Of a stretch of DNA of 64,000 nt, positions 39,476-42,034 are shown one piece after another (the first letter of the stretch is position 1; every line of letters starts with the position of its first letter). The notes beneath the pieces were generated by a model that saw nothing but the letters and a program-made list of their open reading frames with translations, was not told where the DNA came from and made no database searches. The stretch is from Escherichia phage DCP2. The stretch is from the sequence record OR780565.1. One strand, written 5' to 3'. Position numbers and translations under genes: made by a program.

Positions 39476-39791
39476 TATTCGTCCGGTCGATGAGACCGGT
39501 CTTTCAGAAAAAGAACTTTCAATCAAGAAAGAAAAGGATGAAATAGCAAAGCTTCTTGATCGTCAAGAAAATGGATTTATTATTGAAAAAATGGTAGAAG
39601 AATTTGGAATGAGTTATCTTGAAGCTACAACAGCATTTTTGGAAGAAAACTCTATTCCTGAAACTCAATTTGCTAAATTTATTCCTTCGGGTATAATTGA
39701 AAAAATTCAGTCAGAAGCCATTGACGAAAATCTTTTACGTCCTTCTGTTGTTCGTTGCGAAAAAACTAATACATTAGATTTTCTACTATGA
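39453..39791 (+). CDS. 33: late transcription co-activator gp33 (112 aa)
   Basis: MTQFSLNDIRPVDETGLSEKELSIKKEKDEIAKLLDRQ matches recalled T4 gp33. Confidence 0.8.
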   Translation: MTQFSLNDIRPVDETGLSEKELSIKKEKDEIAKLLDRQENGFIIEKMVEEFGMSYLEATTAFLEENSIPETQFAKFIPSGIIEKIQSEAIDENLLRPSVVRCEKTNTLDFLL

Positions 39792-40441
39792 TTAAACTCC
39801 GCATGCCTGCTGGTGGTGAAAGATACATTGATGGTAAATCAGTTTATAAATTATACTTAATGATAAAACAACATATGAATGGAAAGTATGATGTAATTAA
39901 GTATAATTGGTGCATGCGGGTGTCTGATGCCGCTTATCAAAAGCGAAGGGATAAGTATTTTTTCCAGAAGTTATCAGAAAAATATAAATTAAAGGAACTT
40001 GCTTTAATCTTTATAAGCAATCTGGTTGCTAACCAGGATGCTTGGATTGGTGACATCTCTGACGCTGATGCACTTGTGTTTTATCGTGAATATATCGGAC
40101 GCTTAAAGCAAATTAAATTTAAGTTTGAAGAAGATATTCGCAACATTTATTATTTTAGTAAAAAAGTTGAAGTTTCTGCTTTTAAAGAAATCTTTGAGTA
40201 TAATCCAAAAGTTCAATCAAGTTATATTTTTAAACTACTTCAATCGAATATAATTTCGTTTGAGACGTTTATCTTGCTTGATTCGTTTTTAAATATAATC
40301 GATAAACATGATGAACAGACTGATAATTTAGTCTGGAATAATTATTCTATAAAGTTAAAAGCTTATAGAAAAATTTTAAATATTGATTCACAGAAAGCTA
40401 AAAGTGTTTTCATTGAAACTGTGAAATCTTGCAAGTATTAA
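39788..40441 (+). CDS. 59: helicase loader gp59 (217 aa)
   Basis: 217 aa as in T4 gp59; synteny 33-59-32. Confidence 0.9.
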   Translation: MIKLRMPAGGERYIDGKSVYKLYLMIKQHMNGKYDVIKYNWCMRVSDAAYQKRRDKYFFQKLSEKYKLKELALIFISNLVANQDAWIGDISDADALVFYREYIGRLKQIKFKFEEDIRNIYYFSKKVEVSAFKEIFEYNPKVQSSYIFKLLQSNIISFETFILLDSFLNIIDKHDEQTDNLVWNNYSIKLKAYRKILNIDSQKAKSVFIETVKSCKY

Positions 40442-40442
40442 T

Positions 40443-41075
40443 ATGAATATAGTATATTGGTTTACATTTGAAGACCGTGTCAAAAATAAGACTCCGCCGT
40501 ACTACTATATCGGCAGTAAATTAAATTGCTCATTTGAAAATGGAATAATATATGACTCTTCCGGAAAGGAATACTGGAGTTCATGTAAACAAAAGAGATT
40601 TTTAAATGCGGTAATGCTTCAAAAACCGAGCGTTAAAATAATTCAAATTGATGATGATTTGGATGTTATTGAAGCAGAGCGAAAATACCAACTTGAAGTA
40701 AATGCCAGAGATAATCCAGACTATTTTAATCTGGTATATGCTGGCGGCGGATTTGGTGTGAGTGGTGAAACTCATCCAGCCAAAGACCCGGAAGTTAGAG
40801 AGCATATGAGATTGGCTAATTATATGAACCGTGACGATTTTAGACCTTGGAAAACATCACGAGCTAATATAGAGTCTTGGAAATTATCTCATATTGCTTA
40901 CGAGAATTATGTGTTATTATTATCCTCTAATCTGTACGGTAAAACTCCTGGATGGCGAAGAGTTAAAGGTAATATAAATATAACTGATGCAACTGCTAAA
41001 TCAATGGTAAAGTATTTCAACTCAGGTTGGATACCTCTCGAAGACCCAGAGTATTGCGAATTATGCCAGCTATGA
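40443..41075 (+). mobile_element. segG: free-standing GIY-YIG homing endonuclease, SegG-like (210 aa)
   Basis: N-terminal GIY-YIG variant (NIVYWFTF ... YYYIGSK); inserted between 59 and 32 as T4 segG. Confidence 0.7.
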
Positions 41076-41125
41076 GGTAAAGTGTCATAGCACCAACTGT
41101 TAATTAAATTAAAAAGGAAATAAAA
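41069..41125 (+). promoter_or_regulatory. gene 32 translational operator (stem-loop/pseudoknot plus A/U-rich gp32-binding leader)
   Basis: GCTATGA 41069-41075 pairs with TCATAGC 41085-41091; unstructured AACTGTTAATTAAATTAAAAAGGAAATAAAA before ATG. Confidence 0.5.
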
Positions 41126-42034
41126 ATGTTTAAACGTAAATCTACTGCTGAACTCGCTGCACAAATGGCTAAACTGGCTGGAAATAAAGGTGGTTTTTCT
41201 TCTGAAGATAAAGGCGAGTGGAAACTGAAACTCGATAATGCGGGTAACGGTCAAGCAGTAATTCGTTTTCTTCCGTCTAAAAATGATGAACAAGCACCAT
41301 TTGCACTTCTTGTAAATCACGGTTTCAAGAAAAATGGTAAATGGTATATCGAAACATGCTCATCTACCTACGGTGATTACGATTCTTGTCCAGTATGTCA
41401 GTACATCAGTAAAAATGATTTGTACAACACTGACAATAAAGAGTATGGTCTTGTTAAACGCAAAACTTCTTACTGGGCTAACATTCTTGTTGTAAAAGAC
41501 CCAGCTGCTCCAGAAAATGAAGGTAAAGTATTTAAATATCGTTTCGGTAAGAAAATCTGGGATAAAATCAATGCAATGATTGCAGTTGATGTTGAAATGG
41601 GTGAAACTCCGGTTGATGTAACTTGCCCGTGGGAAGGTGCTAACTTTGTACTGAAAGTTAAACAAGTTTCTGGTTTTAGTAACTACGACGAATCTAAATT
41701 CCTGAATCAATCTGCGATTCCAAACATTGACGATGAATCTTTCCAGAAAGAACTGTTCGAACAAATGGTTGACCTTTCTGAAATGACTTCTAAAGATAAA
41801 TTCAAATCATTTGAAGAACTGAGCACTAAGTTCAGTCAAGTTATGGGAACTGCTGCTATGGGCGGTGCCGCAGCAACTGCCGCTAAGAAAGCTGATAAAG
41901 TTGCTGATGATTTGGATGCATTCAATGTTGATGACTTCAAAACAAAAACTGAAGATGATTTTATGAGCTCAAGCTCTGGCAGTTCATCTAGTGCTGATGA
42001 CACGGACCTGGATGACCTTTTGAATGACCTTTAA
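41126..42034 (+). CDS. 32: ssDNA-binding protein gp32 (302 aa)
   Basis: [50 protein letters not shown] matches recalled T4 gp32; acidic C-terminus. Confidence 0.95.

Follow-up and report, generated by a model that had tools for sequence, protein, structure and literature searches.

The window analysed here is a 64,000-nucleotide stretch of the genome of Escherichia phage DCP2 (OR780565.1). It comes from a Tequatrovirus, and its 59/segG/32 locus is 96.9% identical to that of phage T4 and 99.3% identical to that of Salmonella phage Lv5cm. Open reading frames, Pfam matches and synteny with T4 place the segG gene between gene 59 and gene 32, all three on one strand:

39788-40441, plus strand: gene 59, encoding the helicase loader (Pfam T4_Gp59_N, E = 1e-53, and T4_Gp59_C, E = 5e-52; ORF list)
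40443-41075, plus strand: segG (old name ORF 32.1), encoding a free-standing GIY-YIG homing endonuclease; 210 codons plus TGA
41126-42034, plus strand: gene 32, encoding gp32, a protein of 302 amino acids that binds single-stranded DNA (Pfam gp32, E = 5e-66; annotated in T4, T2 and Lv5cm)

The gene 32 ATG begins at 41126, and the segG stop codon, TGA, occupies 41073-41075. When re-read from the sequence and the ORF list, the coordinates in the original prediction were all correct, namely those of the ORF (40443-41075), of its stop codon and of the sequence GCTATGA (41069-41075) that contains this codon. The gene 59 stop codon, TAA, lies 1 nucleotide before the segG ATG, and the segG start has no obvious Shine-Dalgarno sequence, so translation of segG probably depends on ribosomes arriving from upstream. 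This layout fits the description of segG as a cassette that has no promoter of its own and relies on transcripts from upstream (PMC2988022).

The SegG protein is identical to T4 SegG at 208 of its 210 residues (99%, E = 9e-164), and PHROG 7504 matches it over its full length (E = 1e-132). With the position of the gene between genes 59 and 32, the earlier assignment to segG holds. A Pfam search with SegG returned no family even at E <= 10, the GIY-YIG profile PF01541 included, and sequence and profile searches of the PDB gave no match. Nevertheless, the motifs of the superfamily are present in an alignment of 23 homologues: IVY at residues 3-5, with Y5 conserved in at least 90%, and invariant Y22-I23-G24, E79 and N96. 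The last two residues presumably correspond to Glu75 and Asn90 of I-TevI. No residue stood out clearly enough to be named as the catalytic Arg. The catalytic domain has the alpha/beta fold of GIY-YIG nucleases, and the C-terminal half of the protein is similar to helix-turn-helix DNA-binding domains. Membership of SegG in the GIY-YIG nuclease superfamily is thus supported by motif and fold, though not by the Pfam profile. Liu and colleagues reportedly found in 2003 that T4 SegG makes a site-specific cut in the gene 32 of phages that lack segG, and that segG is preferentially inherited in mixed infections. T4 SegG is listed as active, with gene 32 as its target (PMC2988022). A near-fixed difference, CA versus AT/AC, at 41355-41356 in gene 32 is a candidate for the SegG target.

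The sequence GCTATGA (41069-41075) is perfectly complementary to TCATAGC (41085-41091), with 9 nucleotides between the two. The element in the gene 32 leader is an H-type pseudoknot rather than a simple hairpin, and these two arms are its stem 2. The parts of the pseudoknot and the signals around it are as follows:

40973-40980, plus strand: TATAAATA, within segG and an exact match to the T4 late-promoter consensus; candidate late promoter of gene 32
41058-41063, plus strand: GAAUUA, homologue of the T4 RNase E '-71' site by alignment with T4 (putative, by homology); segG codons 206-207
41064-41067, plus strand: stem 1, 5' strand, UGCC; the Cys208 codon and the first base of the Gln209 codon
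41068, plus strand: loop 1, a single A, invariant in 12 of 12 leaders compared
41069-41075, plus strand: stem 2, 5' strand, GCUAUGA; contains the segG stop UGA (41073-41075)
41076-41079, plus strand: stem 1, 3' strand, GGUA; a segG-linked variant (T2-type, GGUCA)
41080-41084, plus strand: loop 2, AAGUG (T2-type, UACAUCG)
41085-41091, plus strand: stem 2, 3' strand, UCAUAGC
41092-41125, plus strand: A/U-rich part of the operator, ACCAACUGUUAAUUAAAUUAAAAAGGAAAUAAAA, with UUAAA/UAAA repeats and the Shine-Dalgarno sequence AAGGAAA (function according to PMC535899 and PMC3014915)

Stem 1 pairs UGCC with GGUA through U-A, G.U, C-G and C-G pairs. The segG gene and the pseudoknot overlap in the 12 nucleotides UGC CAG CUA UGA (41064-41075). 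These specify Cys208-Gln209-Leu210-stop and at the same time make up the complete 5' half of the pseudoknot, from the 5' strand of stem 1 through loop 1 to the 5' strand of stem 2. The original prediction had put the segG stop codon inside the left arm of a stem-loop ahead of the A/U-rich gene 32 leader. The coordinates and the identity with the T4 operator confirm this position of the stop codon, and the pairing of the two arms stands as well. The simple stem-loop does not, because the arms are one stem of a pseudoknot and the 5' strand of the other stem also lies within segG.

The pseudoknot is found about 35-62 nucleotides upstream of the ATG of gene 32 and is followed by the UUAAA/UAAA repeats and the ribosome-binding site, which is the layout of a T-even operator. 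Its full sequence, AUGCCAGCUAUGAGGUAAAGUGUCAUAGC, is identical in the window and in T4. The A/U-rich leader (41092-41125) is predicted to be unpaired in the minimum-free-energy fold of the late transcript and essentially unpaired in other contexts. The leader of the window equals that of T2 and is one AAUUA unit (5 nucleotides) shorter than that of T4, so positions are shifted by 5 relative to T4.

The translational operator of T4 gene 32 is said to have been described by McPheeters, Stormo and Gold in 1988 and by Shamoo et al. in 1993. The T4 operator consists of a pseudoknot that begins 67 nucleotides before the AUG and, downstream of it, of UUAAA/UAAA repeats, which overlap with the ribosome-binding site; gp32 nucleates on the pseudoknot and then spreads cooperatively (PMC3014915, PMC535899). 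The footprint of T4 gp32 on its own RNA extends from +3 to -70 (PMC535899). In T4 coordinates this footprint takes in the last 15 nucleotides of segG, whose stop codon is at -58 to -56; the operator does not, then, map further downstream in a way that would remove the overlap. Binding of gp32 and translational repression were demonstrated for the T4 sequence, to which the pseudoknot of the window is identical (PMC535899, PMC3014915).

Signals for the expression of gene 32 also lie within segG. In T4, the gene 32 middle and late promoters are located inside segG, as is RNase E processing (PMC2988022). All T4 gene 32 mRNA species are cut by RNase E at -71, and the RNA upstream of the cut decays fast (PMC3014915). 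The homologous site in the window is at -66, because the leader is 5 nucleotides shorter than that of T4. The candidate late promoter is one of 7 matches to TATAAATA in the whole window, a number that equals the chance expectation, so the sequence by itself proves nothing.

An inverted repeat at the segG stop codon might be a coincidence devoid of function, and the frequency of such repeats gives this idea some initial weight. Perfect 7-bp stems with loops of 3-12 nucleotides occur 113 times in the A/T-rich window, compared with 67 +/- 9 in shuffled sequences, so a lone hairpin is not beyond chance. The folding z-score is -2.0 for the isolated element and about zero in longer contexts (-0.15 and +0.67), and these weak values mean that energy alone does not support a structure. 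Stem 2 is predicted to form in the processed, leader-length and late-transcript contexts. No family for the gene 32 operator was found in Rfam at permissive E-values, and covariance models cannot represent a pseudoknot. The only Rfam match that overlaps the pseudoknot is a sub-threshold one to DUF2815 RNA (19.1 bits versus a gathering score of 41.2, E = 2.4).

Comparison of diverged leaders argues strongly against coincidence. Leaders were taken from T4, T2, Lv5cm, further GenBank phages of the genera Tequatrovirus, Mosigvirus and Winklervirus, and 26 T4-like contigs of IMG/VR. From these, 12 distinct versions were aligned, with the pairing register set by eye from the same sequences. In this by-eye register, the 11 pairs of the pseudoknot are formed in all 130 scored cells (100%) across the 12 diverged T4-like leaders. 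Changes on both sides occur in 7 of the 11 pairs (three of the four in stem 1, and four of the seven in stem 2). The covariation score of the 12 leaders, again with the register set by eye, is 0.72, compared with 0.22 in shuffles, and sliding the 3' partners by 1-3 columns as a control lowers pairing to 26-55%. Both stems thus covary in 12 lineages, and the sequence is that of the footprinted and mutationally defined T4 operator. Covariation, identity with the experimentally mapped T4 operator and the published footprints together confirm that the structure is real. The coincidental hairpin, refuted by covariation and by the literature, was dropped, and its probability is negligible.

The junction of the window resembles that of T4 in its gene order of 59, segG and 32, in a SegG that is 99% identical and in a stop codon at the same place in stem 2. 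It differs from T4 in the shorter leader, which like that of T2 has two AAUUA/UUAAA units instead of three. Gene 32 codons ~10-22 are also T2-like, and gp32 has 302 amino acids; these are minor strain differences.

The T2 pseudoknot, for which an NMR structure by Holland et al. 1999 is cited in PMC3014915, has the same H-type topology, and its loop 1, stem 2, downstream leader and gene 32 start are identical to those of the window. However, T2 has no segG, its pseudoknot is fully intergenic, and it carries TATAAATA ~25 nucleotides upstream of the pseudoknot. Stem 1 of T2 has 5 bp (UGACC/GGUCA), whereas that of the window has 4 bp with one G.U pair (UGCC/GGUA), and loop 2 is UACAUCG in T2 versus AAGUG in the window. 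In the region of the stem 1 3' strand, phages with segG have GGUAAAGUG, whereas the T2-type sequence is GGUCAUACAUCG.

RB69, a Mosigvirus, also shares the topology (PMC535899). Its stem 1 (AUACC/GGUAU) and stem 2 (GCUACGA/UCGUAGC) show compensatory changes relative to T4, and its loop 2, UAAGUG, is nearly the same as the AAGUG of the window. RB69 differs in lacking segG, in having a fully intergenic pseudoknot and in the sequence of its A/U-rich region. Covarying versions of the pseudoknot are present in phages of the two other genera that lack segG, AUACC-A-GCUACGA-GGUAU...UCGUAGC in Mosigvirus and AUGCC-A-GGUGUGA-GGCAU...UCACAUC in Winklervirus, and also in further T4-like phages without the gene. 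The G.U pair of the T4-type stem 1 is an A-U pair in Mosigvirus and a G-C pair in Winklervirus. By a crude duplex estimate, stem 1 of the T4 type is weaker than any other in the comparison (about -2.2 kcal/mol, compared with -5.4 kcal/mol in T2).

The original prediction left two options for the origin of the overlap, either that insertion of the endonuclease gene had preserved the operator or that the operator sequence had been co-opted as the C-terminus of the endonuclease. When the 59-32 regions of phages with and without segG are compared, the core CCAGCUAUGAGG, including the UGA, is identical in the segG-less T2-type phages. Relative to T2, homology is lost just past the gene 59 stop codon and is regained at 41066 with CCAGCTATGAGG, which holds the TGA. 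At the corresponding gap, T2 has 35 nucleotides of its own that include TATAAATA and the stem 1 strand UGACC. Because the core with its UGA exists in segG-less T2, the sequence of the operator probably predates segG.

Homologues of SegG support the same order of events. A search of 5.8 billion proteins yielded 29 relatives. Six homologues with the SegG-type C-terminal domain were located (P0002, P0003, P0005, P0011, P0014 and P0019; 36-64% identity), and all are encoded between gp59 and gp32. All but P0003 stop 4-27 nucleotides upstream of an intact intergenic pseudoknot, so the T4-type overlap is most likely a derived fusion. For P0003, which is encoded at locus L104, no canonical pseudoknot was found downstream of the ORF stop. 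In the protein alignment, conservation extends up to Leu207, at an E-F/Y-x-x-L motif, after which the last three residues vary. Several of the closest homologues share the alignment column at which T4 SegG ends, and T4 SegG is no longer than its homologues. On this ground, an ORF that was simply extended by read-through was rejected, and replacement of the tail by deletion and fusion is a better fit. These comparisons favor co-option of the operator over an insertion that preserved it. We infer this direction of evolution by parsimony over a handful of lineages rather than from a rooted tree.

The series of events was probably as follows. In the T4-type lineage, an endonuclease gene resident between genes 59 and 32 would have lost its own tail, stop codon and spacer through a deletion. 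The deletion would have fused codon 207 to the pseudoknot, which then would have supplied the chimeric C-terminus Cys-Gln-Leu-stop. Stem 1 would have stayed paired, because the GGUA of phages with segG matches the UGCC within segG, with one G.U pair.

The half of the pseudoknot that lies outside segG is linked to the presence of the gene. When 10 loci with segG and 5 loci without it are compared from -70 to +900, the fixed differences are confined to loop 2 and the two strands of stem 1. Only four Tequatrovirus contigs in IMG/VR have this pseudoknot, so a census was conducted in a GenBank phage collection instead. The 50,697 records of the collection were searched with two artificial chimeric queries, and 140 records with segG and ~357 without it were recovered (~497 genomes, 72% without segG). 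The query that joins the segG 3' end to a T2-type 3' strand matched the 140 records with segG at no more than 91.3% over its full length, and the query that joins T2 upstream sequence to a T4-type 3' strand matched the ~357 segG-less records at no more than 92.2%. Thus, among ~497 genomes, none with segG has the T2-type 3' strand, and none without segG has the T4-type strand.

Recombination has occurred nearby. In the window and in Lv5cm, the T2-like gene 32 codons ~10-22 adjoin a T4-type pseudoknot, which implies recombination within ~90 bp downstream that did not separate the strands of stem 1. Free-standing endonucleases cut hundreds of base pairs away from their own genes, and the target of SegG is gene 32 (PMC2988022). 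The two halves of the pseudoknot, which are 12 nucleotides apart, may never separate because a gene 32 that is cut by SegG would undergo co-conversion of everything up to segG. Two causes of the linkage, the closeness of the parts together with co-conversion during homing and selection for the pairing of stem 1, are both likely.

Alternately, the pseudoknot of phages with segG may have come from a donor phage as a co-converted flank of segG, so that the T4 lineage only inherited an overlap that had formed elsewhere. The perfect linkage in ~497 genomes of segG to the stem 1 3' strand and loop 2 variant, which is the sole fixed difference, would be expected from such an import. The T4-type GGUA-AAGUG is closer to the Mosigvirus sequence GGUAUAAGUG than to the T2 version, the T4-type AUGCC equals the AUGCC of Winklervirus and not the T2-type sequence, and the window and Lv5cm show recombination just downstream of the pseudoknot. 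However, stem 2, loop 1 and the entire downstream leader are the same in Tequatroviruses with and without segG, and the census of the phage collection found no segG-less donor with the exact T4-type pseudoknot. Import in this form is a tentative proposal that we regard as rather unlikely, and it would change where the fusion took place but not whether it did.

Fusion of the segG tail to the operator raises the issue of whether the two uses of the shared nucleotides interfere. The gene 32 mRNA operator is bipartite, with the compact H-type pseudoknot as the nucleation site for gp32, followed by the unstructured A/U-rich leader, along which gp32 spreads cooperatively until it covers the ribosome-binding site. 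Most gene 32 mRNAs would begin at promoters inside segG or would lose their upstream part to an RNase E cut immediately before the pseudoknot. Such mRNAs would carry no ribosomes translating segG, and little interference is expected. We infer that the coding and operator uses of the shared nucleotides are largely separated.

Unprocessed polycistronic RNA is a different matter. The 3' strand of stem 2 ends 16 nucleotides past the segG UGA, which is within the footprint of a ribosome, so a ribosome that terminates at this codon would open both stems. Perhaps, then, the nucleation site for gp32 is lost when a ribosome that finishes segG melts the stems, and gene 32 is relieved of repression for a short time. 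This geometry, with the stop codon in the 5' strand of stem 2, is all that points to such coupling, apart from the expected dependence of segG translation on upstream ribosomes (no visible Shine-Dalgarno sequence, and a start 1 nucleotide after gene 59). Conversely, completion of SegG may be impeded by a pseudoknot that is folded and bound by gp32. In both cases, the synthesis of SegG would be linked to the status of gp32. According to the literature, though, cleavage at -71 affects every gene 32 mRNA species and the parts upstream of it decay quickly, and late transcripts begin inside segG. Moreover, the same operator regulates gene 32 in phages that lack segG, and non-overlapping SegG homologues exist. 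Coupling of this sort is therefore quite improbable, and the converse effect is equally so.

The overlap could instead act as a retention device that shields a selfish gene from loss, because an imprecise deletion of segG would harm the essential gene 32. The segG gene contains the promoters of gene 32, the RNase E site and one half of the operator, and it is intact in 10 of the 10 segG-containing loci examined. Edgell, Gibb and Belfort (2010) make the same argument for embedded promoters; they describe T4 segA, segE, segG, mobB and mobC as free-standing endonuclease genes with embedded host signals (PMC2988022). As in their cases, the selfish gene at this locus holds promoters and an RNase E site that an essential downstream gene needs. 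In contrast to promoters alone, however, the embedded element includes half of a repressor-binding RNA structure. Against protection from loss, a clean removal of segG is still possible through recombination with a relative that has no segG, and the gene is absent from 72% of the records. Also, most SegG-type homologues persist without any overlap. Retention is possible, with the odds somewhat against it, and it would be a consequence that may complement the main explanation, not a different origin. The explanation as a whole, in which an older operator was fused to the segG tail at the T4-type segG/gene 32 junction with little interference between the two functions, is in our judgment likely to be correct.

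Three T4-like loci (L106, L109 and L107) have a different arrangement. Their endonucleases share the nuclease domain and have a Cys-rich C-terminal domain, and the ORFs run through the A/U-rich leader up to a stop 3-26 nucleotides ahead of the gene 32 ATG, where a compact pseudoknot is no longer present. Pseudoknots hidden within the ORFs of L104, L106 and L109 were sought, and the weak A/U-rich or G.U-rich candidates found there were not trusted. Taken together with the T4-type overlap, these loci could mean that the 59/32 junction is a site at which seg-family genes have repeatedly become fused to the gene 32 operator or have overwritten it, with both coupling and rewiring of control, although we consider this joint reading improbable. 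If it is true, SegG synthesis and gp32 nucleation would be mutually exclusive on unprocessed mRNA of the T4 type, and the output of the endonuclease would be coupled to gp32 autoregulation. In phages of the L106 type, control of gp32 would have been rewired by a selfish gene.

The overlap of T4 segG with the gene 32 operator and the hypothesis of a chimeric origin were published by Borjac-Natour, Petrov and Karam in 2004 (PMC535899). Both the overlap and its likely chimeric origin have thus been known for T4 since that year, and a 97%-identical relative adds nothing fundamental. The modest additions made here are the perfect linkage across ~500 genomes, the diverged homologues that mostly do not overlap the operator and the variants that overrun the leader. 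The junction is a textbook case of a selfish gene and the regulatory RNA structure of an essential neighbor sharing nucleotides, in that the same 12 nucleotides encode a peptide tail with its stop codon and form half of a repressor-binding pseudoknot. Comparisons of this kind would make the trade-off between coding and structure, and the effect of homing on the evolution of an operator, testable.

At window positions 41155-41191, gene 32 codons about 10 to 22 are T2-like both in the window and in the Salmonella phage Lv5cm, and this stretch includes an extra GGT codon; gp32 has 302 amino acids. Because the two phages combine these T2-like codons with a T4-type pseudoknot and segG, their sequences suggest a recombination breakpoint in the interval 41084-41155. 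Farther into gene 32, positions 41355-41356 are CA in all ten segG+ loci and AT or AC in four of five segG- loci. As the closest approach to a segG-linked polymorphism within gene 32, this difference may mark the site that SegG targets.

Two to four AAUUA/UUAAA units occur in the operator leaders of the sampled segG+ phages (window 41092-41125; loci L001, L088, L089, L093 and L094), and two units are present in all five sampled segG- Tequatroviruses. The leader extends 33-43 nucleotides 3' of the pseudoknot among the phages sampled. A second in-frame segG stop codon, TAG at 41088-41090, is located five codons past the TGA (window 41073-41090) and falls in the 3' strand of stem 2. The Rfam model of the DUF2815 RNA motif matches window 41075-41128 below threshold (19.1 bits versus a gathering score of 41.2; E = 2.4). 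This match is due mainly to the UUAAAAAGGAAAUAA...AUG ribosome-binding region, and is probably a chance similarity.

A promoter-like sequence is found opposite the pseudoknot, directly over it:

41088-41060, minus strand: sigma-70-like site (ATGACA, 17 nucleotides, TG-CATAAT; 10 of 12 matches)

In total, sigma-70-like sites are about as numerous in the region as expected by chance. Belin et al. (1987, as cited in PMC3014915) reported antisense transcription of T4 gene 32.

Homologues of SegG in related phage loci show other arrangements of the endonuclease gene and the gene 32 leader:

L104 1501-2184: gene for P0003, a SegG-type homologue (61% identity)
L106 1501-2163: gene for P0013, between gp59 and gp32
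L109/L110 1501-2169: gene for P0016, between gp59 and gp32
L107 1501-2142: gene for P0020, between gp59 and gp32

The P0003 stop codon is 44 nucleotides upstream of gene 32, and no canonical pseudoknot was found downstream of the P0003 ORF in L104, the sole candidate being weak, A/U-rich and within the ORF. P0013, P0016 and P0020 share the nuclease domain of SegG, and their C-terminal domain is different and Cys-rich. Their ORFs traverse the A/U-rich leader of gene 32 and end just 3, 15 and 26 nucleotides before the gene 32 ATG in the L106, L109/L110 and L107 types, respectively. The L106 stop codon comes after the Shine-Dalgarno sequence and before the ATG. A scan of these loci revealed no compact pseudoknot. 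Unlike L106, locus L105 has a SegG-type gene, and its pseudoknot is intact; on the basis of near-identical leaders and gene 32 starts, the two appear to be one phage type.

Several T4-like contigs (L008-L014, L016, L017 and L022) show no pseudoknot within about 130 nucleotides upstream of gene 32. Gene 59 appears to end about 10 nucleotides 5' of the gene 32 ATG in these contigs, and repeated AACUGU and A-rich leader motifs would consequently lie within gene 59 coding sequence.

Of the relatives that have the nuclease domain of SegG, the most distant is found outside the 59/32 site. It lies in a split uvsX-like recombinase gene, whose N-terminal and C-terminal parts flank it:

L111/L112 1501-2379: gene for P0028, 292 amino acids

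A second Seg-like endonuclease gene is directly 5' of gene 59 in some relatives (L104 172-867, L105 245-859 and L097 1-213). Genes 33 and 59 flank it in L104 and L105, where it matches the Pfam family I-TevI_DNA-bd, and the gene upstream of gene 59 in phage PHB12 carries the annotation of a Seg-like homing endonuclease. The placement of this second gene indicates that the replication-gene cluster has more than one insertion site for homing endonucleases.
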